Shown in pieces: positions 26,741-61,340 of a stretch of DNA of 64,000 bases (within the stretch, counting starts at the first letter, position 1; the number at the start of each line of letters is the position of its first letter). The position numbers were made by a program, and so were the translations under genes. Location: the NCBI GenBank assembly GCA_030651475.1, contig JAUSEW010000027.1, positions 41,553 through 105,552 of the forward strand, in the 5' to 3' direction. This DNA comes from Candidatus Levyibacteriota bacterium (GTDB lineage: Bacteria > Patescibacteriota > Microgenomatia > Levybacterales > UBA12049). Below the pieces are notes generated by a model, which ran no database searches, had not been told where the DNA came from, and saw nothing but the letters and a program-made list of their open reading frames with translations.

Positions 26741-26848
26741 TTAATATATATTTATTTACACGTAATTATAGCATACGCAGTAAGGGGATCAAGCGTTAGT
26801 TTATGTATTTTCATTCAGTTTAATAGTATAATGTTTACTTAGGATCTA
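26741..26848. promoter_or_regulatory. Divergent intergenic region with a TATAAT box (agtataatg) about 20 nt upstream of 26849
   Basis: Lies between 25109..26740(-) and 26849..27679(+). Confidence 0.3.
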
Positions 26849-29390: not shown

Positions 29391-29393
29391 TGT

Positions 29394-31545: not shown

Positions 31546-31546
31546 A

Positions 31547-33036: not shown

Positions 33037-33044
33037 CTTTAAGT

Positions 33045-33989: not shown

Positions 33990-34062
33990 GTTAGTATTGT
34001 AACAAATTGAACGCTCGTGGTCTATTGCAAACTAGTTGTTATTGCATTAAAATAAAGCCTAC
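33990..34062. promoter_or_regulatory. Divergent intergenic region; candidate promoters for 33045..33989(-) and 34063..35274(+)
   Basis: 73-bp AT-rich gap between divergent genes. Confidence 0.25.
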
Positions 34063-35274
34063 ATGCTTAAAAGCAATCAGGGAACAATAAATAAAAAAAT
34101 ATTGTATGCAGAGGCAGTATATGGAGATGAAGAAAAACAGGCGGTAATGCGTTCAATGGACAACAAATGGTTGGCTTCAGGTCCTTTGGTTAAAGAATTC
34201 GAAGAAAAGGTAGCTAAACTTTTTGGGAAAAAATATGGAATTGCCGTAAATTCCGGTTCTTCGGCAGATCTTCTTGCGATTCAAAGTCTCCGTCTTCCGA
34301 AAGGCGCTGAAGTAATTACTCCGGCGTGCACATTTTCAACTACTGTTTCCTCCATTGTTCACAATAATCTAGTCCCTGTTTTTATAGATACTGTGATTGG
34401 CAGATATACCATTAATGAAGATTTGGTAGAAAAAGCTATTACAAAAAAAACCAAAATTATTTTTGTTCCTCAATTAGTTGGTGGCGTTTGCGATATGGCT
34501 AGGCTTAGAAAAATAGCTAACAAACATAATCTTATTTTAATAGACGATTCTTGTGATACATTCGCTCCTTATTTTAATTCCAAAACTGCGGCTTCATATA
34601 GCGATTTAACAACGACCTCATTCTATGGATCACACATAATTACGGCTCTTGGATTTGGCGGAATGGTTTTGGTCGATGACGAAAAACTAAGGGACAGAAT
34701 TTATACTCTTCGTGATTGGGGTAGAGTAGGAAACGATAAAGAAGCATTCGAAAATAGATTTAATTTTTCTATAGACGAAATTCCATATGATGCAAAATTT
34801 CTTTATTCGGAGCTTGGATATAACTTAAAAATGAATGAGGCAGCTGCGGCATTTGGTCTTGTGCAGTTAAGAAGGTTGGATGGTTTTCTAAAGAAACGTA
34901 CCTATAACTTTAAAAAACTTAAAAAATTCTTTAGTAAATATGAGAAGTGGTTTGTTCTTCCTTATCTTCTGGAAGGAGCGCAAACAAATTGGCTTGCTTT
35001 TCCTTTGACGGTTAAAAAAGATGCGCCTTTTTCCCGTTATGATTTTTTGAAACATATGGAATCTAAAGGGATTCAAACAAGAGTACTTTTTTCAGGAAAT
35101 ATCGTTAGGCACCCGGTCTATAAAGATATTAAATTTAAGGTTAGTGGATCGTTAAAAAATGCAGATACCATTATGGCATCCTCTTTATTATTGGGTTGCC
35201 ATCAAGCTCTTACAGACACAGACATAGATTACATTGCCAAATCTGCAGACGAATTCTTCAAGAGATATGCTTAA
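34063..35274 (+). CDS. DegT-family PLP/PMP enzyme with His replacing the active-site Lys: candidate NDP-4-keto-6-deoxyhexose 3-dehydratase (ColD/E1-like)
   Basis: Aligns with the DegT fold but reads SFYGSHIITALGFGG where the paralogs have SFxxxK. His-for-Lys is the known hallmark of ColD and E1 dehydratases. Confidence 0.55.
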   Translation: MLKSNQGTINKKILYAEAVYGDEEKQAVMRSMDNKWLASGPLVKEFEEKVAKLFGKKYGIAVNSGSSADLLAIQSLRLPKGAEVITPACTFSTTVSSIVHNNLVPVFIDTVIGRYTINEDLVEKAITKKTKIIFVPQLVGGVCDMARLRKIANKHNLILIDDSCDTFAPYFNSKTAASYSDLTTTSFYGSHIITALGFGGMVLVDDEKLRDRIYTLRDWGRVGNDKEAFENRFNFSIDEIPYDAKFLYSELGYNLKMNEAAAAFGLVQLRRLDGFLKKRTYNFKKLKKFFSKYEKWFVLPYLLEGAQTNWLAFPLTVKKDAPFSRYDFLKHMESKGIQTRVLFSGNIVRHPVYKDIKFKVSGSLKNADTIMASSLLLGCHQALTDTDIDYIAKSADEFFKRYA

Positions 35275-36286
35275 TCCTCTGGTCACAATAATAATTGTAA
35301 ATTGGAACGGTAGAGCTCTTTTGGAAGATTGCCTTTCTTCCTTGTTGAAAATTTCTTACAAAAATAAAGAAGTTACCTTTGTAGATAATGCATCAACTGA
35401 TGGTTCTTTGGAATACGCCAAAAAAATGTACCCGGGGATGAAAATTATCCAAAATTCAAAAAATTTAGGTTATGCCGAAGGCCATGAAGAGGCAATAAAA
35501 AAAGCAAAAGGAGAATTAGTTTTGCTTTTAAGTACAGACACTATTGTCAAAGAAAATATGCTGTCTGCCATGGTTTCAGCTATTTACAAGGAAAAAAATA
35601 TTGGAGCGGTTATGCCAAAACTGCTTATGCATCCTAATACGAATTTAATAGATTCCATTGGATCTTTTTTTGTCCGAAGCGGAGTTTCGTATCACTATGG
35701 TCGGGAAAAAGACTCAAAACTCCCAATTTATAATAAAAAAATGGAGATTTATTCCGCCAAAGGAGCATGCCTTCTTTTTAGAAAAGAAGTTCTTGAGAAA
35801 ACTGGATTATTCGATAAAGATTATTTCGCATATTTTGAGGAGACTGATTTGTGCCACAGGATATGGCTCTCCGGCTATAAAGTTATATATACTCCGGACA
35901 CCGAGGTTTACCATAAGGGAGCAGGAACTTCAAAAAAAATTGCAAGAGCATACATACAATTTCACTCATTTAAAAATAGACTTATGACTTATCTTAAAAA
36001 TTTATCAGCAGTAAATATAATAAAAGTATTGCCTCTAACTCTTTTGGTTTATCAGGCTATTTTTCTCCTTTTCTTATTAACCGGAAAATTTAGAATTGCT
36101 TTTGCTATCCAGGGGGCAATTATCTGGAATTTTTTGAATATTGGAAAAACTTTGAAAAAAAGAAAATACGTCCAGGAGGAAATTAGAAAGGTAAGAGATG
36201 AGGACTTTTTACCTAACATTACAAGGAAAGTAAGACTTAGCTATTATTATTATATGTTTAGAGGCTTAAACTTGTATAAGGATTAA
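35267..36286 (+). CDS. Glycosyltransferase, GT2 family, with C-terminal TM helices
   Basis: VTIIIVNWNGRALL...VTFVDNASTDGS...LLSTDTIV motifs. The start is set at the ATGCTTAA overlap (35267) rather than the upstream ATG (35234). Confidence 0.7.
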   Translation: MLNPLVTIIIVNWNGRALLEDCLSSLLKISYKNKEVTFVDNASTDGSLEYAKKMYPGMKIIQNSKNLGYAEGHEEAIKKAKGELVLLLSTDTIVKENMLSAMVSAIYKEKNIGAVMPKLLMHPNTNLIDSIGSFFVRSGVSYHYGREKDSKLPIYNKKMEIYSAKGACLLFRKEVLEKTGLFDKDYFAYFEETDLCHRIWLSGYKVIYTPDTEVYHKGAGTSKKIARAYIQFHSFKNRLMTYLKNLSAVNIIKVLPLTLLVYQAIFLLFLLTGKFRIAFAIQGAIIWNFLNIGKTLKKRKYVQEEIRKVRDEDFLPNITRKVRLSYYYYMFRGLNLYKD

Positions 36287-37453
36287 ATGAAGAATAATAG
36301 GAAAATTAGAATTGTAATTTCGCTTCACGAATTCTATGAGGCAGGTTCTGCATATGAGCTTAGGAATTTTTTGCTAGAAAATTATAAGGCGGACATGCTT
36401 TTCATCTCCCACCCCCTCCTTCTAAGAAAGGAGTCCTACAATTTTAGTTCGAGATATGAATATTTTAAAGACAGCATATTGATAAAAAAAAACAATGCTT
36501 TTCATTGGGTTTTGCCGGAACCTTTCTTGTATATTAAGGATTTTCTATACACACTGATATGGACAATTTTTATTGGTCAAAAATATGATCTATTCTTTGG
36601 TTACAACCCTCTAGACGCATTTTGTGGCATTCTGTTAAGAAGTATTGGAAGAGTTAAAAAAGTTGTTTATTACAATATAGACTTCACCCCAATTCGTTTT
36701 CAGAACAAAATCCTTGACTACATTTATCATCTGTTCGATAAGTACGCTGCTTACTACGCTGATCTTAATTGGGTTGGGACAAAGAGAACTATAAAAGCAA
36801 GAATAAATTATGGGTTATCTCTAAAAAGAATGGCGAAAACAATTATAGTTCCAGACGGCAATCATTCCCTCAGGATAAAACAAAAAAAGTCCTCGCAAGT
36901 AAAAAAAGAAAACATAGTTTACTTGGGAGGTATATACAAAAAGCAGGGAATAGATCTCATTATTGAGGCTCTCCCAAAGCTCAATAAATTGATTAAAGGT
37001 TTGGAGTTCACAGTCATAGGAGATGGTGAATATCTAGACACACTCAAAGAAAAGGTAAAGAGTTTAAAACTTAATAACGTAAGATTTCTAGGATACATAG
37101 AAGATTTATTTAAAGTAGAAGATATCTTAACGAGTTCGGGAATAGCGGTCGCACCCTACCTTCCCGATAAGAATAGTTTTACTTACTATTCCGATCCGGG
37201 GAAACCAAAATGGTATCTTGCCTGTGGCTTGCCAGTTATTATAACGAATGTTCCGGCGATTGCCGAGGTAATAGAACGAAGAAAGGCGGGAAAAATGATA
37301 AACTACGATAAAGAGGAATTAATAAAAGCGGTTTTAGAAATAATGCATAAAGGAAATTATGAGGAATACAGAAAAAATTCAAGGAAAATGGGACTTTCTT
37401 TTGATTGGTCGATTATTTTTAAAAAGGCATTATCGCAAACTTTGAGAATATAA
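36287..37453 (+). CDS. Glycosyltransferase, GT-B fold (GT4-like, divergent)
   Basis: C-terminal domain with IVYLGGIYKKQGIDLIIEA...FTVIGDGEY and ACGLPVIITNVPAIAEVI, typical of GT-B C-domains. Confidence 0.55.
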   Translation: MKNNRKIRIVISLHEFYEAGSAYELRNFLLENYKADMLFISHPLLLRKESYNFSSRYEYFKDSILIKKNNAFHWVLPEPFLYIKDFLYTLIWTIFIGQKYDLFFGYNPLDAFCGILLRSIGRVKKVVYYNIDFTPIRFQNKILDYIYHLFDKYAAYYADLNWVGTKRTIKARINYGLSLKRMAKTIIVPDGNHSLRIKQKKSSQVKKENIVYLGGIYKKQGIDLIIEALPKLNKLIKGLEFTVIGDGEYLDTLKEKVKSLKLNNVRFLGYIEDLFKVEDILTSSGIAVAPYLPDKNSFTYYSDPGKPKWYLACGLPVIITNVPAIAEVIERRKAGKMINYDKEELIKAVLEIMHKGNYEEYRKNSRKMGLSFDWSIIFKKALSQTLRI

Positions 37454-37457
37454 ACGC

Positions 37458-39092
37458 ATGAAAATTAACAGACTGATTATCTTTTCGATAATTTTATTTG
37501 CTATTATTTTAGCAACTTATCATCAGCTATTTCAAACTTTCTATCAGCAGGATGAATGGATAGCTTTGGGTCATATAATGACTCAAACATTCCCCAAATA
37601 TTTTGAACAGTTTAGTAAAACAGCTCTCTTAGGTGGTGGAGGAAGACCGTTATCAGTTCCCTTGCAATATTTTTTGTTTAGCAACTTTCCTTTTCAGGCT
37701 GCCCCATTTGTAGTATTTGCTTTAGTGTTCCATTTTCTGAATAGCTTATTGGTCTTTCTTTTGGCTAAAAAAATAACAAGAAATTTCTTAATTGCTTCTA
37801 TTTCAGCTATTTTTTTTGCTACCTCTTCGGTTTCCCATCAGGCAGTGTCTTGGATTGGGGCAAGTCCAACAACCTTGCCTTCAGCCTTTTTTGCCTTGTT
37901 TTCTATTTTACTTTACTTTCATTTTCTGGAAAATGAGAAGCGAAAGTTTTTTTATCTATCTTTATTTTTCGCTTTGATTTCTTTCTTTTTCAAAGAAAGC
38001 GGTATATTTATTTTTATTCTCCTGCCCTTAATTTATAGGATCTATAAGAAGGTCTCTTTTTATAATTCGCTCAAAAAACATTTTGTAATAATAATTTATT
38101 TATGCGTTGCTGTTTTATCAAGAGTTTACGACCTTTTTTTTGTAAATACTGGCTTAACAACAACCTTCGTGACACGAAACAGCAATACGGTAGAAAGGAT
38201 AATCCTGCATTCTTTTGTCTACCCTTTTGAGTCTCTCTCTCAAGTATTTATATTCCCCTCAATTATGTGGAAATTTTCCCATTTTTTTCTTTCCGTTGTT
38301 TTTCCTTTCGTACTGCACAGTCCTTCAGGAGTCCTAGCGACGGAAACAATGGGGGCCGAAGTTATTTCAATAGCGCTTTCCTCTATTATCTTAATTCTCA
38401 TATTTTTAGTTTACAGAAACGATAAGAAAAACAGGAAAATCATTTTGTTTACTTTACTATTTTTCTTCTTAAGTTTTCTTCCCTATGTTTTTCTTGAAAG
38501 AGGAAATGCATATCTTGACTCGCGCTATTTCTATCTTGGTGTTGTTCCCGCATCTATTATTTTCTCTTTGTTGGTTAATTCAATAAAAAATAGATTAAGT
38601 AAAAACTATTTTTTTCCAATTGCGCTTTTGATAATTATATTTTTTTATAGTCAGATAAAATTTATAAATAATGAACTTGGCTATCAAGTAAATCTTGCGA
38701 GGGAAAGGAAAAATTTTCTGATGTCTTTGAAAAAACTTTATCCAGCGGTACCTACAAATTCCGTTTTTTATATAACTGGTAATCGTGACTTTTATGTTCC
38801 CGATCATAAGATTCCTTTTCAACAGGGAATGGGATATACCCTTATGGTTTGGTATTATAAAACCGGAATTATACCAAAAGAATTTATGAATTCCTTTCTC
38901 TGGGATATTAAAGAGGAGGGCTACAGAGAAAAAGAGAATAAAGGATTTGGTTACTATTGGAACCTAGGTCATCTTTCAACTGATTTAAAAAGAAACGAAA
39001 TAAATAAAAATCGAGTCATAGCTCTTTTTTATGACGCTGACAAAGAAAAACTCGTAGATATAACTAAAAGCGTGAGAGAGGAGCTGAAATAG
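37458..39092 (+). CDS. Polytopic membrane protein, GT-C-like. Paralog of the C-terminal half of 56712..59870.
   Basis: YQQDEWIALGHIM DE motif after TM1. About 12 TM helices. Collinear similarity to residues ~560-1052 of the fusion protein (FFKESGIFIFILLPLIY vs LFHELGIMAPFLVILYD). Confidence 0.45.
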   Translation: MKINRLIIFSIILFAIILATYHQLFQTFYQQDEWIALGHIMTQTFPKYFEQFSKTALLGGGGRPLSVPLQYFLFSNFPFQAAPFVVFALVFHFLNSLLVFLLAKKITRNFLIASISAIFFATSSVSHQAVSWIGASPTTLPSAFFALFSILLYFHFLENEKRKFFYLSLFFALISFFFKESGIFIFILLPLIYRIYKKVSFYNSLKKHFVIIIYLCVAVLSRVYDLFFVNTGLTTTFVTRNSNTVERIILHSFVYPFESLSQVFIFPSIMWKFSHFFLSVVFPFVLHSPSGVLATETMGAEVISIALSSIILILIFLVYRNDKKNRKIILFTLLFFFLSFLPYVFLERGNAYLDSRYFYLGVVPASIIFSLLVNSIKNRLSKNYFFPIALLIIIFFYSQIKFINNELGYQVNLARERKNFLMSLKKLYPAVPTNSVFYITGNRDFYVPDHKIPFQQGMGYTLMVWYYKTGIIPKEFMNSFLWDIKEEGYREKENKGFGYYWNLGHLSTDLKRNEINKNRVIALFYDADKEKLVDITKSVREELK

Positions 39093-40165
39093 TGTCAAAA
39101 AAACCTCTAGTTAATATAATTATAGTTACCTACAATCAGTTTAAGTTTATAAGAGAATGTATTAGTTCAGTAATAAATTCGGATTATTCAAATATAAAAA
39201 TATATCTAGTAGATAACAATTCGAATGAAAAAGATTACAAAAAGCTTTACGAAGATTTTAAAAAAAACAGAAAAATTACTTTCTTCAGGTTAAGTGAGAA
39301 TAGAGGTTTCGGAGCGGGGTGCAATTATGTTTTAAAGCTAATAAAAAACGGCTATATAGTTTTTCTAAATGATGACGCCATAGTTACGAAAAATTGGTTA
39401 AATCCAATTATTGACTATATGGAAAATCATCCCGATGTTGGAGCGGCTCAGCCAAAAATTAAAGATATGAAAAGAAAAAAATATTTTCAGCATGCTGGAG
39501 CGGCGGGAGGTTTTATGGATGTTTATGGATATCCTTTCTGCCGAGGGAGAATTTTCTACGACGTCGAGGAGGATAATGGTCAATACGACAACGTAATTGA
39601 CGTTGTATGGTGTTCGGGGAATTGTTTGGTAACTAGATTGGAAGTGCTAAAAAAAGTGGGTTTTTTTGATGAAATATTCTTTATGTATGCGGAAGAAGCG
39701 GATCTATGTTGGAGAATGAATAAAGCAGGTTACAGATTAGTCTTCATTCCTTCGTCTGTTGTTTATCACTATGGCATTGGTGGCCCCAATAGGCAGTCTT
39801 ATAAAAAAATATTCTGGCATCACAGAAATGGCTTAATAATGTTAATGAAAAATTATTCAATAACGGAAATTATAAGATACCTTCCCGTAAGATTTTTTTT
39901 GGACTTTGTAACTTTTTGGTATTATCTTCTCGCAAACAGAATAATGTCAAATGCGCTTGCTTTAGCTGTTGCATATTTGAGCTTTCTTTATTTACTTCCA
40001 AAAGTTACATACGGGAGATTTAAAAAATTCCCACAAAAAAAAATTAACAAAACCCTATCTTATCCACTGTATAACGGTAGTATTGTTTTTGATTATTTTT
40101 TATTGGGTAAGAAAAAATTTACGGATTTAAATAAGATACATATGGAAGATAAAATTTTGCAATGA
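39092..40165 (+). CDS. Glycosyltransferase, GT2 family (WbbL/rhamnosyltransferase-like), GTG start, C-terminal TM helices
   Basis: NIIIVTYNQFKFI...YLVDNNSNE...GFGAGCN...FLNDDAIV motifs. Confidence 0.75.
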   Translation: MSKKPLVNIIIVTYNQFKFIRECISSVINSDYSNIKIYLVDNNSNEKDYKKLYEDFKKNRKITFFRLSENRGFGAGCNYVLKLIKNGYIVFLNDDAIVTKNWLNPIIDYMENHPDVGAAQPKIKDMKRKKYFQHAGAAGGFMDVYGYPFCRGRIFYDVEEDNGQYDNVIDVVWCSGNCLVTRLEVLKKVGFFDEIFFMYAEEADLCWRMNKAGYRLVFIPSSVVYHYGIGGPNRQSYKKIFWHHRNGLIMLMKNYSITEIIRYLPVRFFLDFVTFWYYLLANRIMSNALALAVAYLSFLYLLPKVTYGRFKKFPQKKINKTLSYPLYNGSIVFDYFLLGKKKFTDLNKIHMEDKILQ

Positions 40166-40231
40166 AGATTCCTGGTATTCAGTAAACCACTTTTTTGTCT
40201 TCTTTAGCGATAAAGATTAAGATTACGTTTT

Positions 40232-40870
40232 TCATCTCCTCACCCCTTTTTTATTATAATTATCTATATCGGCTTGTTTAAAAAATTTAACTCCCACATA
40301 ATATTTATTACCTTTATCTACAAAATAACCATAGGAGCGATCTTTAAAAGTACAAGCCCGTAATCTGTATATGGTCTCCTTATCAAATTCCTGAAAGCTA
40401 GTTATTTCTTTTTTCCAATGATAAGTACCTTTTCCAATCTGTGGCTTACTCTCGATTTTACCCATCTTAATTTTTGGCCAGACATCAATGAATAATTTAA
40501 ACATTTCTTTATTGATTCTCTCTTCCAGGTCGCTTGCTATATCCGTAGGATAAACCTTGACCTCCTTTTGGGCGATAACTTCTCCTTTGTCAACCTGTTC
40601 ATTCACATAATGGATTGTTACCCCCGCTGGTGTACCGTCAATTAAAGGCCAAATATGAGTATGCACACCCCTATTGTATGGGAGATAGCCTGGGTGCAGA
40701 TTTATTGTTGGTACCCTTAACTGATCTTTGGTTAATATTTTATCGTAGTATGCCACGATACGAAAATCAGGATCTTTACTGACAATAGTTTCTCCCTGTT
40801 GTTTTAAATAATCTTTAACCTGCTGACCTATTGGTTTGATTGATAAAACTTGAATTTTCATAATGAGCAC
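40232..40870 (-). CDS. Sugar N-formyltransferase (Fmt/PurN/ArnA-N-terminal-domain family)
   Basis: INLHPGYLPYNRGVHTHIWPLIDGTPAGVTIHYVNEQVDKGEVIAQ carries the Asn/His/Asp formyltransferase catalytic signature. No tRNA-binding C-terminal domain (212 aa), as in sugar N-formyltransferases. Confidence 0.7.
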   Translation of the reverse strand: MLIMKIQVLSIKPIGQQVKDYLKQQGETIVSKDPDFRIVAYYDKILTKDQLRVPTINLHPGYLPYNRGVHTHIWPLIDGTPAGVTIHYVNEQVDKGEVIAQKEVKVYPTDIASDLEERINKEMFKLFIDVWPKIKMGKIESKPQIGKGTYHWKKEITSFQEFDKETIYRLRACTFKDRSYGYFVDKGNKYYVGVKFFKQADIDNYNKKGVRR

Positions 40871-41415
40871 AAAATTGATGGTCCCGGTTGGGTCTCTATG
40901 AATTCTAATTTAATACTCCCAAACATCTCCTGAGTATATAGTTTTTTACCTCCCGGAAGATTAACATAGGTATTCCCACTCAATGCTTTTATAATATCTT
41001 TAATTCCATCCACGAATTTACCGTGTGGAATTTCTGATGATAAATAAATAGGCGTCTTAATTTTTAAGACTTGACATATGGCCTTAATAGTTAGATAAAT
41101 ATTATGACTTAATGTATATTTTTGATCCATTATGTCTACAAAAAGGGAATATATATGATAATTAAATCTAGGGGTAAATAGGCGAAACCTTTTTTTATCC
41201 GCCTCAATGTCTTTAAAATAACATTCATTAATTTTGGCATAATCTGAATGTTTTCTTAACCGAAAAGTAAATAGTTTAGGAAAATAATTTCGATTAATCC
41301 AACCGCCTTTTATATATTTAGCGTCATCATATAAAACAAATTTATCAACACTTTTAATGAGCTTAAAAAATCCAGGATACGGAAATAAATAGGGTTGCAT
41401 AACAGCAATTTTCAT
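40858..41415 (-). CDS. WbqC-like family protein (function unknown; recurrently linked to amino-sugar/formyltransferase genes)
   Basis: N-terminus MKIAVMQPYLFPYPGFFKLIKSVDKFVLYDD matches my memory of the WbqC-like family N-terminus. Confidence 0.5.
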   Translation of the reverse strand: MKIAVMQPYLFPYPGFFKLIKSVDKFVLYDDAKYIKGGWINRNYFPKLFTFRLRKHSDYAKINECYFKDIEADKKRFRLFTPRFNYHIYSLFVDIMDQKYTLSHNIYLTIKAICQVLKIKTPIYLSSEIPHGKFVDGIKDIIKALSGNTYVNLPGGKKLYTQEMFGSIKLEFIETQPGPSILCSL

Positions 41416-42077
41416 TATTCACAAACGAAAAAAATACTGGAACATAAATCTGGATATTTCTTGCCCAATTGATAACAACCTTCCATATATTCTGGGGAGA
41501 CAATTTTCCCTAATTGATCTATCTGAAAATTAGCTAAGGCTTTAAAAAAGACCCCTCCTCTATGGACAACCTTCAGTCCTGCTTTTTTAATATCCCGTTC
41601 CATTGTGTCTAACGTATATGTTCTGTAATGCCCATGTTTTATCTCGTCTTTAGTAACTGCTGCATTATGGTCAATTAACCCCATATGAACAGCTATTTGT
41701 CTAGATGGAGCATTGGCGTTGGGACAGGCTATGAATGCTCTGCCTTTGAGATATTCCTTGACTTGTTTTAAAGCCAATACTGCATCCTTAATGTGTTCTA
41801 AGGTATGAACCATCACGATATTATCGTATTTTTCAGGCAATTGAGCCTTTTCAATGGTTGTTTTATAAAACTTAACTTTTACTTCAGGCTCAAATTCAGG
41901 ATCAACGCACGTCACGTTACTAAATCGCATCATCAGTTTTTTAGTCATTACATTTTTCCAACTTCCCACTTCCAATAAATTCCCCTTTTTGAAGAAGGGT
42001 TCGAAAGACCTGATCATATATTCGTGCATCAATGCGTCGAAATTATAGAAGTATAAGCCCGAAACCATATTTCCCAT
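41415..42077 (-). CDS. Class I SAM-dependent methyltransferase
   Basis: GNLLEVGSWKN motif I-like and IVMVHTLEHI motif. Confidence 0.5.
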   Translation of the reverse strand: MGNMVSGLYFYNFDALMHEYMIRSFEPFFKKGNLLEVGSWKNVMTKKLMMRFSNVTCVDPEFEPEVKVKFYKTTIEKAQLPEKYDNIVMVHTLEHIKDAVLALKQVKEYLKGRAFIACPNANAPSRQIAVHMGLIDHNAAVTKDEIKHGHYRTYTLDTMERDIKKAGLKVVHRGGVFFKALANFQIDQLGKIVSPEYMEGCYQLGKKYPDLCSSIFFVCE

Positions 42078-42879
42078 AGGTATTGCCCAAATAAATCATG
42101 TAGTCACCAAACACTGTTGGGTAGTGCTGCATTTCCGAATCCCATCCTTTTTTAGAAAGTGGAATTTTAAAATCAGTCCTAGTCCAGTTTTCTAAGTCAG
42201 TTGAGTATGCGTATCCAATTCTATAGTTGGCCTTATCCCAATCCCTATAAGTAAAATACATGTGGTACTTTCCATCTCTGTAATGGACATCTGGTCCTGC
42301 CTGACACTCGTTTTCTGGTCCTTCAATTAATAGTTTGCCATTAAGAGCAATTTTGTAAACTGGTTTATGGGTGTTTTTGTACTTTAACCACTTTGTACCG
42401 CTTATGTAAAACAAATACCATTTATTATTAAAATGTCTAATCTTTGGTCCACCTTTAAGATATGGCGAATCAATGCTATCTGTTAAAATGGGTCCTTCGC
42501 CAACTTTTGTGAAATGTTCTCCATCTCCTATAGCTTTGCCAATAGCGATGGTAAAAGGGATTGAACCGTGCGGACGTGTCCAACCAGCATAGTACATTAA
42601 ATAATCTTTACCATCTTTGATGACTGACACTGGATAAGTACCATACTCATCAAAGGTTCCAGGCTTACCTAGTGGCAGAAGCGGTCCTTTATTAACCCTT
42701 AGAATCTTCCAATCTTCATCAAAATCAGCATAGCCCGCTACACTTACCGGATCGTTATCTTTTTGGTGTCTGTGGGTAAAATAGACTCTAACAAAACCAT
42801 CCATCTGTATGACAGAAGGGGCTTGAGCATAATCCAAACCATAATCTTGTGGTCTAAAAATTCTCCCTAATTTTTTCAT
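42043..42879 (-). CDS. Five-bladed beta-propeller protein of the GH43/GH32/GH130 superfamily (glycosidase or glycoside-phosphorylase-like)
   Basis: FRPQDY...APSVIQMDGFVRVYFTHR and repeated aromatic/Gly-rich blade-like segments (YLMYYAGW, WYLFYISG, YHMYFTY). The family assignment is tentative. Confidence 0.4.
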   Translation of the reverse strand: MKKLGRIFRPQDYGLDYAQAPSVIQMDGFVRVYFTHRHQKDNDPVSVAGYADFDEDWKILRVNKGPLLPLGKPGTFDEYGTYPVSVIKDGKDYLMYYAGWTRPHGSIPFTIAIGKAIGDGEHFTKVGEGPILTDSIDSPYLKGGPKIRHFNNKWYLFYISGTKWLKYKNTHKPVYKIALNGKLLIEGPENECQAGPDVHYRDGKYHMYFTYRDWDKANYRIGYAYSTDLENWTRTDFKIPLSKKGWDSEMQHYPTVFGDYMIYLGNTYGKYGFGLILL

Positions 42880-43835
42880 GTTGTCACCCCTTTAACAATT
42901 TTAATTATTGAATCCTGTTCCTTATTGGCTAGTTCATAATATAAAGGTAAGCACAAGGCCAGCTTGGCCATATTTTCTGCCAGCGGACAGCTTTGGTTTC
43001 CAAAGATATTGTTTAATGATGGATAAAAGTATCTTCTTGGGAAGATGCCATGCTTATTAAGCGCTTCAATAATCCTTGTGGGATCGGAAGTACACATTAA
43101 AGGATAATAACTCACATCCTTATAATTTGTGCCAAATGCATCATTGTATCTATCAACTAGCTTTTGATACTTTGCAACCACCTTGTCTATATCTTGTAAA
43201 TTACATAGTCCCATTGCCGCGTGGAATTCAGACATTTTAGCGTTTATTCCTACCCCCTGAAAAGCATATTCACTCTTATAGCCAAAATTTCTCATCCATC
43301 TTGCTTTTTCAGCTATTTCATCGTTATTGGTTACAACCGCACCCCCTTCTGCTGTCTGAAATATCTTAGTTGCGTGGAATGAAACGATGGACACATCCCC
43401 ATAATTCATAATTGATTTACCTTTAACTTTGACTGCAAAGGCATGAGAAGCATCGTAAATAACAGGTCTTGCTTTAATCATTTGGGGTATGCCGTAGGTG
43501 TGGGTTACTAAGGCCGGACCCTTGAATTCCTCGTCTAAATCAACAAACTTGGGCGTTATACCTAGCCACATTGGAGCAGAAATAGTTGCAATAAAACTAA
43601 AGGGGGAAACATATATCTCTTTTTTAACATCCAGTGCTTTTAGAGCGATTTCGATTGCCGAAGTGCCATTAGATACACAAACTACGTGTCTTACGCCCCA
43701 ATAGGCTTTTAATTTATTTTCCAACTCCTGAACGAGATTTCCATCATTGGTTAACCAATTAGTCTTCCATATCTTTTTAAGATATTTATTATACTCTATT
43801 AGAGGCGGTAAATAAGTCCTAGAAACAAAGATCAT
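42876..43835 (-). CDS. DegT/DnrJ/EryC1-family PLP-dependent sugar aminotransferase (compact, 319 aa)
   Basis: VSIVSFHATKIFQTAEGGAVVT with Lys present. Confidence 0.75.
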   Translation of the reverse strand: MIFVSRTYLPPLIEYNKYLKKIWKTNWLTNDGNLVQELENKLKAYWGVRHVVCVSNGTSAIEIALKALDVKKEIYVSPFSFIATISAPMWLGITPKFVDLDEEFKGPALVTHTYGIPQMIKARPVIYDASHAFAVKVKGKSIMNYGDVSIVSFHATKIFQTAEGGAVVTNNDEIAEKARWMRNFGYKSEYAFQGVGINAKMSEFHAAMGLCNLQDIDKVVAKYQKLVDRYNDAFGTNYKDVSYYPLMCTSDPTRIIEALNKHGIFPRRYFYPSLNNIFGNQSCPLAENMAKLALCLPLYYELANKEQDSIIKIVKGVTT

Positions 43836-44004
43836 ATTTATCTAAAAAATTTGAAATTCATTCGCTCTTTTATCACACAATCCTAACACACCGATTGTCC
43901 AATTGCAATTCAGTATTTATTAATATTATAATGTGAACTAACATTGCGTCGTAGTTTCGCAATTAAGTTAAAAATAAAAGCCCAAGCAAAATTGTACTAA
44001 TTTT
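43836..44004. promoter_or_regulatory. Largest intergenic gap (169 bp), divergent, with a TATTATAAT element; candidate promoters for the N-formyl-sugar operon (-) and the long + strand operon (44005..63432)
   Basis: attaatattataatgtga read directly. It sits at the head of about 19 kb of co-directional, mostly overlapping genes. Confidence 0.35.
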
Positions 44005-45009
44005 ATGATTAAATGGCCAAAAGTATCACTTGCCCTATTTACCTTAAATGGGGGTGAAGGCGTAAGGAGGTGCTTGGAATCAGTTAGAAAACAAGTATAC
44101 CCAAAAGATAAAATTGAAATTATCGTAATCGATAATAATTCTACAGATGACAGTGTAGACATAGCCAAAAAATATACAAATAAAATAGTTGTAAACAGTA
44201 GGGATGGTTATTTGAATCGAGCAGAGTCGATGAGAATGGCGACTGGCGACTTCGTTTTTATGATACTTGAACAGGATATTGAACTTAGAAGTAAGTATTT
44301 TCTTCAAAAGATGATTAGTCCATTAATTGAAGACGAAAGATTGGTTGCAAGTTTTACAAGGGAGTATCCCAAAAAAGATCAGCCTTGGGTTACAAGATTT
44401 ATCTCTTATAATCCTGCTCAGTGCGATCCCCTTTTCGAATATTTAACACCATCAATTAAAAGCACAATTGTTGAAAAAAAACAAAATTATTTTATCTGTA
44501 AATTTATTGAAGGTAAAATTCCTCCAGTAACGCATATGTTTTTTAGGATTTCTGCTCTTAAAAAATCTGGCGTTTGGAATCAGAAAAGAGATGCCGATCA
44601 CGATACTGTAATAAAACTTATAGAGTATGGATATAATTTATTTGCTTATGTTCCTGATGCAGGCGATTATCATTATCATGCCAAAAATTTAAAAGAACTC
44701 ATCGGGAAAAGAATAAGAAATTTAAATAGACATTATTTTATCTATCATGAAACTACCAAGTATAAATGGGTTGATGTAAACAATAAACAAGAAGTAATAA
44801 AAATGATAATATGGGTTCTTTACGCCAACTCATTAATTTTTCCAGCAATAAGAGGAATTATTAGATTTATAAAATATAAGGATTGGGCATTATTGCTCGA
44901 ACCTGTTATTGCTGTTTCCGTAACAGATGTGCTTATTTGGACATTTCTAAGAAACAAAGCGGGAAGAAAAATAATTATCGATTCACTAAGATCTCTTATG
45001 TTAAAATAA
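44005..45009 (+). CDS. Glycosyltransferase, GT2 family
   Basis: VSLALFTLNGGEG...IEIIVIDNNSTDDS motifs. Confidence 0.65.
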   Translation: MIKWPKVSLALFTLNGGEGVRRCLESVRKQVYPKDKIEIIVIDNNSTDDSVDIAKKYTNKIVVNSRDGYLNRAESMRMATGDFVFMILEQDIELRSKYFLQKMISPLIEDERLVASFTREYPKKDQPWVTRFISYNPAQCDPLFEYLTPSIKSTIVEKKQNYFICKFIEGKIPPVTHMFFRISALKKSGVWNQKRDADHDTVIKLIEYGYNLFAYVPDAGDYHYHAKNLKELIGKRIRNLNRHYFIYHETTKYKWVDVNNKQEVIKMIIWVLYANSLIFPAIRGIIRFIKYKDWALLLEPVIAVSVTDVLIWTFLRNKAGRKIIIDSLRSLMLK

Positions 45010-45010
45010 C

Positions 45011-46735
45011 ATGAAAGTACTAGGGATTCATTTTCAGAGTCATGATACGTCTGTTGCTCTAGTCGAAAATGGCAATATTCTTTACGCCGCTAGCAACGAG
45101 CGTTTTTCAAGAAGAAAAATGGATGCTAATCCTCCTTTGGATGCTTTGAAAGATTGTCTTTCATACTCAAAGACAAAGCCACAAGATATCGATAAGGTTG
45201 TTTTCGTTGGGGATCCGTTTCCGTATTCTTACGTGGGGAGATTAAAAGAATTATCATGGCCATTTATATATACAAAAGGACGTTATCTTTTATGGTGGAG
45301 AAAACCGCATCTTATTTTATGGGAGTTATTTATTGCAACAGGGATTCCTAGCTTTTTATACAGAGAGTTACTTCCACGCATTTTAATTAGGGGAAAACTT
45401 AATGGATTTAAAGGAAAATATTCATATGTGCATCACCATTTTGCTCACATGTATTCTGCTTATTACACATCCGGTTGGAAAGACTGTCTTGTTATGTGCA
45501 GTGAAGGTTCTGGATTTTCTGAAACAATGTCTATCTATCATGTAAGGAAGGGGGAATGGATAAAAGTGGTAGAAAATTATTTACCTCATTCGGCAGGCAA
45601 ATTTTATGAACTGGTTACTGTTATGTTAGGTTTTAATGTATTGAGGCACCCAGGGAAAATCACCGGACTAGCAGCATATGGTAATCCAAACACAGTATAT
45701 AATGCAGTAAAAGATCTTTTATCGGTTAACGGGTTAAAGCTTAAGCTCAATTACGAAAAGTATTTAAAGTGGGGAATTAACTATTCCCTTACGAAGACTT
45801 TACCGAAAGAGTTAAGGGGAAATAGAAGGGAAGATATTGCTGCTGCATTTCAAAAGAGACTTGAAGAATGCATAGTCGAAATTGTCAAAAAAGCAGTAGA
45901 AAAAACCGGAGAAAAGAAGCTTTCGTTTGCGGGTGGGGTGGCGGCCAATGTTAAGCTTAACCAAAGACTGCATGAAGAAGCGGGAATAAATGAAATTTAT
46001 ATACATCAGGCAATGGGGGACGATGGCTTAGCTCTGGGTGCAGCATTACACACAGCGTTTTTAAATGGATTTCAAATAAAGCAATCGGATAATGTTTATT
46101 TCGGACCGGATTTTAGCGAACAAGAAATTAAAAAGAGTTTAAATAAATTTAATTTAAAATTTAGTAAAGAAAATAACATAGAGATAAAAATAGCAAAGCT
46201 TTTAGCAGAAAGTAAAATTGTGGCCAGGTTTAATGGAAGAATGGAATATGGGCCCAGAGCATTGGGCAATAGATCCATTCTTTACAAAACGACAGACAGA
46301 GGGGTTAACAATTGGCTTAATAAACGTCTTAAAAAAAGATCGGATTTTATGCCTTTTGCGCCCGTGACTCTTGATTCGTTCGCAGATAAATGCTTCAAAA
46401 ACCTTAAAGGAGCTGAATATGCTGCTCGATTTATGACAATTACTTTCGATGTCACGTCTTATATGAAAAAGCTTTCCCCTGCTGTTGTTCATGTGGATGG
46501 TACCGCAAGACCGCAGATTATAAGAAGTAAAGATAACCCCAGTTATTATAAACTACTTGAGGAATACTACAAACTAACCGGTATACCGTCTCTTATTAAC
46601 ACAAGTTTCAATATGCATGAAGACCCAATAGTTTGTAGTCCGGATGATGCAATAGAATCATTTTTAAGCGGAAGTCTAGATTATTTGGCAATTGGCAATT
46701 ATTTAGTAAGTTATGAGCAAAATAATAAAAAATAG
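45011..46735 (+). CDS. Carbamoyltransferase (NodU/CmcH/NovN/TobZ family)
   Basis: N-terminus VLGIHFQSHDTSVALVENGNILYAASNERFSRRK is the canonical Carbam_trans_N signature. HHHFAHMYSAYY metal-binding His cluster. About 570 aa, typical for the family. Confidence 0.85.
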   Translation: MKVLGIHFQSHDTSVALVENGNILYAASNERFSRRKMDANPPLDALKDCLSYSKTKPQDIDKVVFVGDPFPYSYVGRLKELSWPFIYTKGRYLLWWRKPHLILWELFIATGIPSFLYRELLPRILIRGKLNGFKGKYSYVHHHFAHMYSAYYTSGWKDCLVMCSEGSGFSETMSIYHVRKGEWIKVVENYLPHSAGKFYELVTVMLGFNVLRHPGKITGLAAYGNPNTVYNAVKDLLSVNGLKLKLNYEKYLKWGINYSLTKTLPKELRGNRREDIAAAFQKRLEECIVEIVKKAVEKTGEKKLSFAGGVAANVKLNQRLHEEAGINEIYIHQAMGDDGLALGAALHTAFLNGFQIKQSDNVYFGPDFSEQEIKKSLNKFNLKFSKENNIEIKIAKLLAESKIVARFNGRMEYGPRALGNRSILYKTTDRGVNNWLNKRLKKRSDFMPFAPVTLDSFADKCFKNLKGAEYAARFMTITFDVTSYMKKLSPAVVHVDGTARPQIIRSKDNPSYYKLLEEYYKLTGIPSLINTSFNMHEDPIVCSPDDAIESFLSGSLDYLAIGNYLVSYEQNNKK

Positions 46736-49700
46736 CAAATTTTTTGAAATATTGTTTATTTTTTTAATATCCCTTACTCCTTTTCTTTGGCTTCGAAATG
46801 GGCAAGTGATACTGGGGCATGATTCGGGTTTTCGTTTAGACTCGTTTACATATTGGCTCAATCTTCTTTACTCTTGGAACCCAATTCCCAATTTTGGTTC
46901 TGATTGGTCAATATTCAAAGGATTTCTCATCACCCAGCTTCCTGAAGCTTTATTTACGACACTAACGGGATCATTAGGTGATGGTCAACTGCTAACGTTT
47001 ATTTTCTGGTTTTTCGCTATAGGACTTTCTATGTATATTTTCGTTAACTCCTTCCATAAAGACAGTAAATTTTGGTTTTTAAGAATATTTGCAAGTACGT
47101 TTTATATGTATAATTTTTTTCTTTTGCAGGCGTGGTTTATCGCGGAGAGAGCGAAATTTTCGATTTACATAGCATTACCATTATGTGTGCTTTTATTATA
47201 TAAAACATTAACAAAGCAGATATCCTTATGGAAGGGTCTTTTCTTCTTTTCTCTACTTTTATTCTTCTTTAATGCCGGAGGCGCGCCAACATTCCTTGGC
47301 TCCTTTTTTGTTTCTTTTGCTGCAACGCTTATATATTTTGCTATAAGAAACTTTCAAAAAGGCGGTATACGTGAGCTTACATATGCTCTTAAGGTTGGTA
47401 TTTTGTTTCTTGTGGGATTCATTATAGTAAATGCCTATTGGATTCTTCCCCAAGCCTATTTGATGTTTCATAATTATAGTTCTTCGTTGGTTGCAAGCGG
47501 AGGGATAAACGGAATTATAGGATGGGAAGCAACAATAAGTAAAAACGCGAGTTTAATAAATTTGCTGCGCTTACAGGGAATACCTGATTGGTACAAAAAT
47601 CCAATCCATCCTTATTCATCATTTTATCTAGAAAATGTTTTTCTTATTGGGTTTAGTTTTTTATTCCCGATCATATTGGTAGGATCACTTATTTTGATTG
47701 CTGCTAAGGGATGGAAAAATCACAATAGGCAACTTCTACTGTTAATATTGGCTTTGTTTCTTATCGGCATTATTTTTACAGCAGGTTCGCATCCGCCAAC
47801 TGGTTTCTTATACGTATTACTCATTAAATATATACCGGTTTTTCCTATTTTCAGATCTTCATTCTACAAATTTGGTGTTACTTTTTGGTTTCCAGCTATT
47901 TTTCTTATTTCGTATGGACTTTATGCTATCCTTACGAATTACATAAAGAATAAAAAATTGTACTTTTTATGTTCAGCCTTAGCTGTTGTTGCTATTCTTG
48001 CTTTTCACTTTCCTTACTTTAGCGCCAATTTCTTTACATGGAATAAGCCATATTCTACGAGAGTAAAAATTCCAAGCTATGTAGCCACGATGTCTAATTA
48101 CATAAATACTCTTCCTTCATCCACGCGAATACTTTTGCTGCCAAGCCTTGATCCGGTTTTTCATGCAGATATAACTGATTGGAATTTCTGGAGCTTGGAT
48201 TTGCTGCCTCGTTTAACAACAAATAAATCTATAGTTGCCGATAGTGCCGGGGCTCCTCCGATTATAGGAAATATGTATAGAGCGATTGAGCTTGGAAACG
48301 AAGAACAGTTTTTACGTTTAGCATACATAAGCGGTGTTAATAAGATACTCTGGAGAGATGATGCCGTTTATAGCAACGGAACGAAAGTCAATGCGCAACT
48401 GCATTATAGAGAAAATACAATTAAAAGCTTTCATTCCCTACGACTTTTAAAGCAAGAGGGAAAGTGGAGATTATACGATATTGCGTTTGCCAAATTGCCT
48501 ATGGATTTTTTTGTTCCTGATAATATTAGCGTAAATTCAAAATACAATTCATACCAAGGACAGCTTATGGCAGAAAAATCAACAACAGGCTCTGCTTTAT
48601 TAGAAGACGCGAAATTTTCCTTGGGTAATGTTGTTAATAAGCAATATATTCAGGCGAATTGCGTATTGTGCGAAATGCACGCTTTCGAAAATATTGCAGC
48701 ACGGATTGATGTTCCTCAATTACGCCTTTTGCCGAATTCAAAACTCTATTTTTTAGTGAAGGCTAAAGAATATATAGGTCTACTAAGGACTAAGGGTTAC
48801 GAAGCTAGGGCGTTAACGGACATGATTTATTCATACAGAAGAATAGCTGAAATAAATAATTTATTAAGGAAAAACAATGATGATCATAATTTTAACCAAG
48901 AAGTTTTTTCAAACATTTCTCGTTTCAAAAAAAATATAAATAATGCTCTGGCAGAGGCGAATCTATTGTCTGTAGAGAAACGAAACGATCTTCTTATAAG
49001 AATATATGCATACCTTTACCACGAAAATAGCAGTACTAATTCATTTATCCATAATAGTCAGGCTAACGCAGCCATTGACAATCTTGAGTTATTTATTGTC
49101 CAAAAAATGAACATGTTGGAGAATACAATATGGATGACTAAAGATAAAACAGATAAGAAATATTTTGTTGATATTCCATTCGCCGGAAATTACTCTTTAG
49201 TATTTACTAACATAGGTCAAGTAACGCCAAGCGAAATATATCTTGACGGAGAGAGAATAAATGCTCAAGACGCCCGTATGGAAAAGGGGACCCATAAATT
49301 AGAAGTTATATATTCTCCGCTTGAAAATATGTTAGTTAAGCCAGCCGATGGGGAACTCTCTTTCAATATTCCCAACGGGGAGAAGGAGAGATTTACTCTT
49401 AAGCCGCTTTCCCGCGCAAATTTATACACAGTGTCATTTGATTATCGTTTTAATAGCGGTATTCCGCCAAATATAAAAATTACTCAAGATGCGATTGAAA
49501 GCGATAATAAGTACGAGCTTACACGGAAAGACGGAGAGCTATTGAGCGCAGAAGGAACATGGAATAGATATGAATATATTGTGGGTGGCGATCCTAATTC
49601 GAAAAATTTCTCCTTAGATTTCCTTATTTGCTGCAAGAACGGAAAAAATTCTAACTTTACAATTAAAAATTTAAATGTGGCTCAATTGTTCGAACCGGGA

Positions 49701-50111
49701 GTTAATTTTGTCAGTACGAATACAAATGTTCAAGATACTCGGGTTGGGAATATCTCCTATAGACAGCTTGACCCTACGAAATATATTGTTTCCGTTCATA
49801 ACGCAGCTACTCCATATGTCTTGTCGTCTAGGATCGGATACGATGCTGGTTGGAAAGCTCTTGTTCTTGATTCATCCAAATCGCAAAATAATAGCAGTTT
49901 TGCTACTGCTTTATTCCAGAATGGGCTACAACAAATTACTCCTTATAAGACAAACACTTTTGCCAACGCTTGGTATATAAATAAAAAAGGGAGTTATGAT
50001 GTGCTTATAGAATATGAGCCGCAGCGATTCTTTTACATTGGCGGGTTAATTTCTCTGATTTCTTTCCCGCTTTTGGCATCACTATTTATTTTTAAAGGAA
50101 AAAAACAATGA
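46713..50111 (+). CDS. Large (1132 aa) YfhO-like GT-C membrane protein: N-terminal multi-TM domain, ~600 aa extracytoplasmic beta-rich domain, C-terminal TM anchor
   Basis: About 13 TM helices in the first ~470 aa. The C-terminal GYDAGWKALVLDSS...KGSYDVLIEYEP...TM motif is shared with 1..933 and 50482..52401. Confidence 0.45.
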   Translation: MSKIIKNSKFFEILFIFLISLTPFLWLRNGQVILGHDSGFRLDSFTYWLNLLYSWNPIPNFGSDWSIFKGFLITQLPEALFTTLTGSLGDGQLLTFIFWFFAIGLSMYIFVNSFHKDSKFWFLRIFASTFYMYNFFLLQAWFIAERAKFSIYIALPLCVLLLYKTLTKQISLWKGLFFFSLLLFFFNAGGAPTFLGSFFVSFAATLIYFAIRNFQKGGIRELTYALKVGILFLVGFIIVNAYWILPQAYLMFHNYSSSLVASGGINGIIGWEATISKNASLINLLRLQGIPDWYKNPIHPYSSFYLENVFLIGFSFLFPIILVGSLILIAAKGWKNHNRQLLLLILALFLIGIIFTAGSHPPTGFLYVLLIKYIPVFPIFRSSFYKFGVTFWFPAIFLISYGLYAILTNYIKNKKLYFLCSALAVVAILAFHFPYFSANFFTWNKPYSTRVKIPSYVATMSNYINTLPSSTRILLLPSLDPVFHADITDWNFWSLDLLPRLTTNKSIVADSAGAPPIIGNMYRAIELGNEEQFLRLAYISGVNKILWRDDAVYSNGTKVNAQLHYRENTIKSFHSLRLLKQEGKWRLYDIAFAKLPMDFFVPDNISVNSKYNSYQGQLMAEKSTTGSALLEDAKFSLGNVVNKQYIQANCVLCEMHAFENIAARIDVPQLRLLPNSKLYFLVKAKEYIGLLRTKGYEARALTDMIYSYRRIAEINNLLRKNNDDHNFNQEVFSNISRFKKNINNALAEANLLSVEKRNDLLIRIYAYLYHENSSTNSFIHNSQANAAIDNLELFIVQKMNMLENTIWMTKDKTDKKYFVDIPFAGNYSLVFTNIGQVTPSEIYLDGERINAQDARMEKGTHKLEVIYSPLENMLVKPADGELSFNIPNGEKERFTLKPLSRANLYTVSFDYRFNSGIPPNIKITQDAIESDNKYELTRKDGELLSAEGTWNRYEYIVGGDPNSKNFSLDFLICCKNGKNSNFTIKNLNVAQLFEPGVNFVSTNTNVQDTRVGNISYRQLDPTKYIVSVHNAATPYVLSSRIGYDAGWKALVLDSSKSQNNSSFATALFQNGLQQITPYKTNTFANAWYINKKGSYDVLIEYEPQRFFYIGGLISLISFPLLASLFIFKGKKQ

Positions 50112-50485
50112 AAAGATTACTAAATTTATTTTTAAATTTGTCTAAGAAAACGGAAAAAGTTACTTCTGAATATCAGGGGAGACTTTTATTCTTGATGATT
50201 ATCCTTTTAACTCTAACTGTTTTTGCAAATTTACCTTATTTTAATATTCTACTAACAATCTCTAACATTATATGGATTATGATTTTGGTTTCTTTATTCA
50301 TTTTTCGAATACGGATGAAAAATTTATTATTGATAGCGATTATTCTTATTGGAACTGCTCTAATCAGCGTTTTAGCTGATAATCGAGAAGTGGCGGAAAT
50401 TTTAGGAAATTCGATTTACCTTATCTTAATCATAGTTTTTACTTCCAATTTCGTTGAATATTTAAAAGAAATTAAAAAATCATGA
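50108..50485 (+). CDS. Small polytopic membrane protein (3-4 TM), unknown function
   Basis: 125 aa, mostly hydrophobic. ATGA-coupled between the two YfhO-like genes. Confidence 0.35.
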   Translation: MKRLLNLFLNLSKKTEKVTSEYQGRLLFLMIILLTLTVFANLPYFNILLTISNIIWIMILVSLFIFRIRMKNLLLIAIILIGTALISVLADNREVAEILGNSIYLILIIVFTSNFVEYLKEIKKS

Positions 50486-53320: not shown

Positions 53321-53334
53321 AATTGGCATAGCAT

Positions 53335-53565: not shown

Positions 53566-53566
53566 T

Positions 53567-54124: not shown

Positions 54125-54128
54125 CATT

Positions 54129-55812: not shown

Positions 55813-55827
55813 AAGATAACAAAGTAA

Positions 55828-61339: not shown

Positions 61340-61340
61340 G

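Follow-up and report, generated by a model that had tools for sequence, protein, structure and literature searches.

Amino sugars acylated via an amino-acid spacer occur in many O antigens, capsules and flagellin glycans. The Escherichia coli O121 O antigen contains an amide-linked N-acetylglycine, and in O123/O58 4-amino-4,6-dideoxyglucose (Qui4N) is acylated by N-(3-hydroxybutanoyl)-D-alanine (PMC7685785). VioA and VioB together make plain Qui4NAc (PMC7685785; PMC9271549), and a review of E. coli O antigens assigns no enzyme to the ligation of the amino-acid spacer (PMC7685785). The genes of O121 are ordered rfbB–rfbA–DegT–WbqC–GNAT–wzx(O121) and those of O123/O186 rfbB–rfbA–wzx–DegT–WbqC–hypothetical–GNAT–MaoC dehydratase; VioA is also present without WbqC, for example in an O116-type cluster. 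The glycine of O121 was reportedly located on Qui4N by Parolis et al. in 1997. Here we describe a related five-gene module at positions 40232..43835 of a 64,000-nucleotide stretch of contig JAUSEW010000027.1 from a Candidatus Levyibacteriota bacterium (the window, meaning the whole stretch analysed). The module encodes a DegT aminotransferase, a five-bladed beta-propeller protein, a methyltransferase, a WbqC family protein and a short formyltransferase. We propose, with a probability of roughly 0.6, that it tailors a nucleoside diphosphate (NDP)-4-keto-6-deoxyhexose into a 4-N-acylated, methylated 4-amino-4,6-dideoxyhexose (viosamine-type) for surface or virion glycans.

Gene organisation of the module

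The module shares with the loci of E. coli O121/Shigella dysenteriae type 7 and O123/O186 a VioA-like DegT, which in E. coli stands directly before WbqC and a small N-acyltransferase. Both E. coli loci yield a 4-amino-4,6-dideoxyhexose whose amine bears a capped substituent. Unlike the window module, neither E. coli locus has a propeller or a methyltransferase, and the cap is an acetyl or hydroxybutanoyl group added by a GNAT, whereas a formyl group is predicted here. WbqC of E. coli has about 230 aa compared with 185 aa in the window, at 31–38% identity. RmlA and RmlB are adjacent in the E. coli loci but absent from the window.

The five open reading frames (ORFs) are co-directional and overlapping, lie on the minus strand and have the coordinates of the ORF list used earlier (Table 1). 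From DegT to the formyltransferase, the successive overlaps are 4, 35, 1 and 13 nt; if the ATG at 40861, the fourth codon of the formyltransferase, is the real start, its overlap with the WbqC stop is of the ATGA type. The genes around the module are on the plus strand. A consensus promoter scan returned 26 sites against 18.5 expected, which is uninformative in AT-rich DNA (the window has a G+C content of about 34%), and a terminator scan was likewise uninformative. The five genes most likely form one translationally coupled, horizontally mobile module. A first-pass annotation, made from the sequence alone, had described five tightly overlapping genes of these families, which the ORF list and profile searches bear out, and had read them as one operon for an amino-deoxy sugar that is N-formylated and possibly methylated. 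Our analysis supports a tight unit for a sugar of this kind, N-acylated (formylated) and probably also methylated.

Table 1. Features of the module and of the surrounding island, in window coordinates.
Feature	Position	Strand	Remarks
VioA-like DegT/PLP (pyridoxal phosphate) sugar aminotransferase	42876..43835	-	319 aa, compacted; PF01041 5.4e-64
A-type five-bladed beta-propeller, GH43/GH130/GH137 superfamily, uncharacterised family	42043..42879	-	278 aa, loop-deleted
Class I SAM (S-adenosylmethionine) methyltransferase, cassette type (predicted)	41415..42077	-	220 aa; Methyltransf_23 1.2e-14
WbqC family protein, compact form; predicted HUP/class I aminoacyl-tRNA synthetase-like Rossmann fold	40858..41415	-	185 aa; PF08889 9.6e-31
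Short PseJ/VioF-type N-formyltransferase	40232..40870	-	212 aa with the GTG start; probably 209 aa with the ATG at 40861
Intergenic region 5' of the module, between it and the divergent GT2 gene 44005..45009	43836..44004	.	presumed promoter region; sole non-coding gap on the 5' side
PglF/PseB-like dehydratase	13032..14438		
Sugar C-methyltransferase	23820..25055		Methyltransf_14/13
FkbM methyltransferase	28662..29390		
O-carbamoyltransferase	45011..46735		

Relatives in genomes and on viral contigs

To place the module, we surveyed 80 genome loci from Bacteroidota, Beta- and Gammaproteobacteria, Campylobacterota, Chloroflexota, Nitrospirota, Omnitrophota, Myxococcota and the Candidate Phyla Radiation (CPR), counting neighbours within 6 kb of the propeller gene. 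All 80 show a cassette context, with the canonical order DegT–WbqC–propellerA–propellerB–GNAT–methyltransferase, often followed by a glycosyltransferase family 2 (GT2) gene. A second propeller is present in 79 loci, WbqC in 74, the methyltransferase in 71, DegT in 67 and GNAT in 57, and a formyltransferase in none (0/80). RmlA or RmlB lies within 10 kb in only about 10% of the cassette loci. The propeller family itself is large, with 2,318 word-indexed matches and 930 representative clusters at E<=1e-30. The GNAT of E. coli O121 is homologous to the cassette GNAT (1.6e-15), and a DNA search of E. coli genomes with the cassette of an Enterobacteriaceae metagenome-assembled genome (MAG) gave no match.

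The window module shares with the canonical cassette an orthologous DegT (40% identity), WbqC, an A-type propeller and the methyltransferase (57%), all adjacent and co-oriented. It differs in having one propeller, without the B type, and a formyltransferase in the place of the GNAT; its order, DegT–propeller–methyltransferase–WbqC–formyltransferase, is rearranged, and all of its proteins are shortened by loop deletions. Judged by gene content and homology, it is a compact, predicted formyl variant of a widespread, uncharacterised cassette. Two other CPR-type contigs have reduced versions. One (GCA_040959955.1) reads UDP-GlcNAc 2-epimerase–DegT–methyltransferase–WbqC–GT2, with no propeller, and the other (GCA_023267635.1) reads DegT–formyltransferase (148 aa)–Methyltransf_24–WbqC–261-aa protein–methyltransferase; from these versions, DegT and WbqC seem to be the irreducible pair.

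Fusions join several of the cassette proteins. Three independent representative clusters (P0322, P0335 and P0356) are propeller::GNAT fusions of 470–477 aa. On 39 IMG/VR viral contigs (L087–L125) we found WbqC–propeller (A type)–(GNAT)methyltransferase sets, in many of which the methyltransferase ORF of about 1.15–1.2 kb has the size of a GNAT::methyltransferase fusion; in L103, the one locus scanned, the fusion was confirmed with Pfam. In the same contig, the set lies at 8647..12093 and comes after a short DegT-like ORF and several glycosyltransferases. The propeller family also includes giant proteins (P0297 with 5,844 aa, P0364 and P0374) of 1,935–5,844 aa with 10–53 propeller-like stretches, and the two that were scanned, P0364 and P0374, have a strong GH130 Pfam match.

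The fliA–fliC interval is a typical place for flagellin-glycosylation genes. In Dickeya zeae WH1, methyltransferase, glycosylase, WbqC, DegT and hypothetical genes are inserted between fliA and fliC (PMC9650423).

Phage-borne copies of the module were found through exact-protein look-ups. All five genes, in conserved order and at 60–83% amino-acid identity, are present on two phage-like contigs with a gene for an SU10-type major head protein, L126 (Logan SRR13949431_3336286) and L130 (ENA ERZ28563660 scaffold_1466), where the module lies directly downstream of capsid genes and beside glycosyltransferases. The head protein of L126 matches phrog_1328 at 1.7e-50, and this contig also encodes a portal protein. 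A third contig, L131 (Logan ERR3804374_10996), has a terminase gene and a faint match to the SU10 adaptor and carries a DegT–formyltransferase pair together with a split transketolase pair. The three contigs are 17–44 kb long and have among them portal, SU10-type major head protein, terminase and adaptor genes. One of the formyltransferases was found on 12 contigs, with lengths of up to 44 kb, whereas scanning viral contigs with the compact WbqC as a single query gave no match. When the window is compared with the phage contigs, the similarity reaches to the module borders and no further. Since the five-gene order is the same on the phage contigs and the similarity ends at these borders, the module would thus be a mobile unit exchanged between the Levybacteria lineage and its probable phages. 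The gene content of the three contigs points to glycosylation of virions, or remodelling of the host surface, by phages of CPR bacteria.

Predicted activities and proposed pathway

The match of the aminotransferase to the DegT_DnrJ_EryC1 family is split in two stretches. Its top NCBIfam models are DesI and PseC, both under their cut-offs, and all NCBIfam equivalog cut-offs are missed; the closest PDB matches are DesI (2po3, 1.7e-32) and perosamine synthases, that is, C4 enzymes. The PLP lysine is Lys157 in the motif SFHATK, which aligns with the lysine motif of DesI. Identity amounts to 40% with the cassette DegT and 35% with the rfb DegTs of E. coli O121/O123, but to only 22–25% with the window's three other DegTs; DNA homologues of the O121 DegT gene in other E. 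coli are annotated as vioA. The enzyme is predicted to be orthologous to VioA-type C4 aminotransferases and to aminate C4 of an NDP-4-keto-6-deoxyhexose.

The formyltransferase matches Formyl_trans_N (PF00551, 9.7e-22) and N_formyltrans_C (PF18216, 2.2e-7), and the profile search gave no match to the C-terminal (tRNA-binding) domain of Fmt. Only positions 70–180 of the Formyl_trans_N profile are matched; positions 1–69 are unmatched and most of the N-terminal subdomain is missing, a truncation shared with the crystallised short PseJ. Residues Asn57, His59 and Asp94 are invariant across 20 aligned homologues of 33–69% identity and align with the INLH and D-x-G motifs of solved PseJ. The first-pass annotation had ascribed an Asn-His-Asp triad to this protein and denied it a tRNA-binding domain; the alignment and the profile search agree on both counts, and a loss of the triad on alignment, which would have spoken against the annotation, was not seen. 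The best PDB match is PseJ (6ci2, 6.7e-26), followed by the formylation domain of the gramicidin synthetase LgrA (1e-19) and then by WbtJ, Rv3404c and VioF. The substrates of these solved relatives are 4-amino sugars (PseJ, WbtJ, Rv3404c and VioF) or an aminoacyl amine (the LgrA domain). Like Anoxybacillus PseJ, WbtJ, VioF, Rv3404c and the LgrA domain, the window protein combines the triad with the folate motif HPGYLP, and like WbtJ and VioF it has a small C-terminal dimerisation domain. Against NF005755 (dTDP-4-amino-4,6-dideoxyglucose formyltransferase), it scores 91.3 bits with a cut-off of 238, and no curated equivalog cut-off is reached. By these comparisons, it groups with 4-amino-sugar formyltransferases. 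Unlike PseJ, WbtJ, VioF and Rv3404c, however, it may have an aminoacyl amine rather than a sugar amine as its acceptor.

Two other nitrogen positions were considered for the formyl group. The cupin-type gene at 6014..6571 had been named as a candidate 3,4-ketoisomerase, which by analogy with the WlaRD and FdtF systems would lead to a 3-formamido sugar (Qui3NFo or Fuc3NFo). This gene matches RmlC 3,5-epimerase models (PF00908 6.7e-16, TIGR01221 8e-13) and not FdtA, it sits 34 kb away on the opposite strand, and both DegT and the formyltransferase are nearest to C4-specific enzymes; a 3-formamido sugar is highly improbable, and we rule out the gene as a ketoisomerase. Since the VioA-type DegT and the formyltransferase group with 4-amino-sugar enzymes, no such partner is expected. 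Alternatively, DegT could act as PseC and the formyltransferase as PseJ in a pseudaminic-acid-type pathway to a 7-formamido nonulosonic acid, as would fit PseJ being the best solved match and PseC the second-best NCBIfam model for DegT. This is very unlikely: the window ORFs that were scanned, all of 150 aa or more, include no NeuB/PseI synthase, PseG or CMP-transferase (PseF), and we reject a complete Pse/Leg nonulosonate pathway in the window. Moreover, DegT groups with VioA-type cassette DegTs, the homologous E. coli context is that of dTDP-Qui4N, and the PglF/PseB-like dehydratase of the window has its own adjacent DegT.

WbqC is recognised with confidence (107.8 bits against a gathering threshold of 21.3) and keeps the motifs QPY..PY.GY, WINRN and YIN..GG, with Q7, Y9, P12, Y13, G15, N41, R42, N43, Y150, N152, G155 and G156. 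A sequence-profile search found no solved relative. Its predicted fold superposes on the Rossmann core of BshC over 177 of 185 residues at about 11% identity and resembles BshC and MshC, the cysteine:glucosaminyl ligases of bacillithiol and mycothiol synthesis, as well as class I aminoacyl-tRNA synthetase cores; unlike BshC and MshC, WbqC is a single small domain. The reaction type of MshC and BshC, which joins an amino-acid carboxylate to an amino-sugar amine, is the chemistry that we propose for WbqC. Because of the BshC-like predicted fold and of the E. coli context of Qui4N with an amino-acid spacer, WbqC may, by analogy, attach an amino acid of the Gly or Ala type to the sugar 4-amine, which the next acyltransferase caps. 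The first-pass annotation had named WbqC-like genes as recurrent neighbours, without a known function, of formyl-sugar genes; WbqC is probably not passive, as its predicted fold and the E. coli context suggest that it modifies the same amine. We found no functional study of WbqC in the literature.

Directly after WbqC, E. coli O123/O186 (L128, 10800..11774) and Enterobacter roggenkampii (L127, 10692..11654) encode hypothetical proteins that are 33% identical to each other and carry the motif YSPRK..G.PDGG, reminiscent of DegT-fold PLP enzymes. Such a protein could have to do with the D-alanine found in the O123 sugar; the Enterobacter copy is followed by an ATP-grasp ligase. We rejected these 320–324-aa proteins as propeller homologues: they show no similarity to it and resemble a divergent PLP-fold protein.

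The methyltransferase is a predicted class I SAM-dependent enzyme, with 54.8 bits against a threshold of 27 for Methyltransf_23. It matches a structural-genomics 'hypothetical protein' (PDB 2p7h/2p7i) at 3.3e-73 and is 57% identical to a cassette methyltransferase of Mucilaginibacter; homologues of it also match NodS.

The first-pass annotation had called for profile and structure checks that would place the propeller in GH43, GH130 or DUF377. The five-bladed fold is confirmed by an AlphaFold2 model (predicted local distance difference test score of 89) and by fold searches, but the assignment to a single family failed. All profile matches are weak: GH32N 4e-5, GH43 2e-3 (17.8 against a threshold of 32.2) and NCBIfam GH130 mannobiose phosphorylase 4.7e-7 (29.5 against 450). 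For GH32N, the total score of 23.8 exceeds the threshold of 22.1, yet no single stretch passes. In having five blades and, in the region of the central cavity, conserved acidic residues, the protein resembles GH130 beta-mannoside phosphorylases and GH43, GH137, GH159 and GH117 hydrolases, but identity to these is only 13–17%, with no one family favoured. Residues D77, E78, E191, D197 and D247 are invariant, and several basic residues are kept as well; the weak profile alignments with 7fip do not allow the known catalytic residues to be placed in register. The window protein is the A-type paralogue, and the B type lacks D197 and the K146/R148 pair.

An identical entry (100%) from a Candidatus Levybacteria MAG is publicly annotated as 'glycosylase', and this label, together with the GH43/GH130/GH137 fold, would be compatible with an unrelated degradative glycoside hydrolase or phosphorylase that is merely located in the operon. 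We find this hardly credible. The family has a cassette context in all 80 genome and all 39 viral loci and occurs fused to GNAT; for the window protein, no N-terminal signal peptide was seen on reading the sequence and no match was obtained at a usable CAZy-type family cut-off. Unlike that of the glycoside hydrolases and phosphorylases named above, its context is cytoplasmic and biosynthetic. Since its cassette neighbourhood is near-invariant and gene fusions exist, we consider the propeller to be a predicted constant biosynthetic partner of the acyltransferase, not a stray hydrolase. Propeller and methyltransferase had at first been called unexpected in this operon; they are instead the most constant members of a widespread cassette and are also found fused to the acyltransferase. 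The statement that they have no counterpart in biochemically characterised pathways holds for the propeller and for WbqC.

Taken in order, the proposed steps are as follows. An NDP-4-keto-6-deoxyhexose would be supplied from elsewhere in the genome and aminated at C4 by the VioA-like DegT, as its orthology predicts. WbqC would most likely ligate a small amino acid to the 4-amine, which is suggested by its fold and by the Qui4N-Gly-Ac of O121 and the Qui4N-D-Ala-hydroxybutanoyl of O123. The formyltransferase, in the place of the GNAT, would then cap the free amine with a formyl group from N10-formyl-tetrahydrofolate; this choice of acceptor is putative. The 2p7h-type methyltransferase would methylate the product. 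The A-type propeller, in which a glycosidase/phosphorylase-like constellation of acidic and basic residues is kept, would work on the same intermediate alongside the acyltransferase, as its conservation and fusions suggest. The product would pass to one of the many glycosyltransferases of the 64-kb island.

Several observations weigh against this pathway. The C-terminal domain of the formyltransferase is typical of direct sugar-amine formylation, so that a plain 4-formamido sugar is possible. In characterised Qui4NFo pathways, an aminotransferase and a formyltransferase suffice. The DegT product could thus be formylated directly to a Qui4NFo-like sugar, as in Francisella and Providencia, with WbqC, the propeller and the methyltransferase performing separate accessory steps such as O-methylation or transfer; the formyltransferase has the N_formyltrans_C domain, and direct formylation of sugar 4-amines is the reaction of its solved relatives WbtJ, Rv3404c, VioF and PseJ. 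However, no version of the module lacks WbqC, not even the minimal ones of phages and CPR bacteria, and in E. coli WbqC goes precisely with the Qui4N residues that bear an amino-acid spacer, whose cap is added by a GNAT homologous to the one replaced here. We therefore judge direct formylation to be rather unlikely, though it has to be taken seriously.

Further points count against the aminoacylated, formyl-capped product that we prefer. The window has no nucleotidyltransferase, including no RmlA homologue, its candidate 4,6-dehydratases all fall short of the curated cut-offs, and DegT is about 40–50 residues shorter than its solved relatives. Recognisable HIGH/KMSKS motifs were not seen in WbqC, and its use of ATP is thus only putative; since these motifs are not obvious, WbqC may just as well depend on aminoacyl-tRNA, in the manner of cyclodipeptide synthases. 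To our knowledge, BshC, the top structural match of WbqC, is itself biochemically unresolved, and in the literature we found no enzyme activity for WbqC, the propeller or the 2p7h-type methyltransferase family. Finally, E. coli O121 makes Qui4N-Gly-Ac without a propeller or a methyltransferase, so that the role of the propeller must lie beyond amination, aminoacylation and capping.

In its most specific form, our proposal is tentative. WbqC would be the long-sought ligase of amino acids to amino-sugar amines in bacterial glycans, a minimal enzyme of the BshC/class I aminoacyl-tRNA synthetase type that uses ATP or aminoacyl-tRNA, and the propeller a new biosynthetic enzyme on a glycoside-hydrolase fold that acts together with the N-acyltransferase and the methyltransferase. 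The product would be an N-formyl-aminoacyl, methylated viosamine-type sugar, and the module would be exchanged by CPR bacteria and SU10-like phages, possibly for virion glycosylation or host-surface remodelling.

The surrounding glycan island and wider meaning

The whole window, 1..64000, is one glycan-biosynthesis island. It contains four DegT aminotransferases (at 14442, 29394, 34063 and 42876), at least six short-chain dehydrogenase/reductase (SDR) enzymes, two hexapeptide acyltransferases, more than 12 GT2/GT4 genes and at least five GT-C membrane proteins of the PMT_2/YfhO type, in addition to the features of Table 1. Scans of the window for tRNAs and Rfam families gave no matches. The GT2 gene at 44005..45009 (+), which is divergent from the module and lies outside the part shared with phages, encodes two hydrophobic segments at its end, as in polyprenyl-phosphate glycosyltransferases of the GtrB/ArnC type; together with the many nearby GT-C proteins, it suggests lipid-phosphate-sugar donors.

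A split transketolase-like pair (Transket_pyr, 170 aa, and Transketolase_N, 220 aa; 1932..3103 (-) with 3060..4010 (-)) adjoins an SDR gene of the 4,6-dehydratase-like type and is 50–56% identical to the pair on phage contig L131. Split transketolase pairs usually add two-carbon branches to keto sugars, and a branched-chain sugar may also be made in the window's island.

We found no structural glycan data for bacteria of this lineage, and there is almost no experimental glycobiology for the CPR lineage. The central idea of the first-pass annotation survives in modified form: a formylated amino sugar is the likely product of the module, and to this we add its context in cassettes and phages as well as a function for WbqC that can be tested. 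The formyl variant is new, and its parent cassette is widespread but unstudied. The locus ties together a common cassette without an assigned function, two E. coli serogroups of known glycan structure and a fold-based hypothesis for WbqC, and it makes a protein of glycoside-hydrolase fold an integral biosynthetic part of the cassette. The module is also found next to the capsid genes of phages whose hosts are probably CPR bacteria, which offers a handle on surface glycosylation and on the interplay of phage and host. The locus is one member of a common family, and this family hides at least two uncharacterised enzyme activities.

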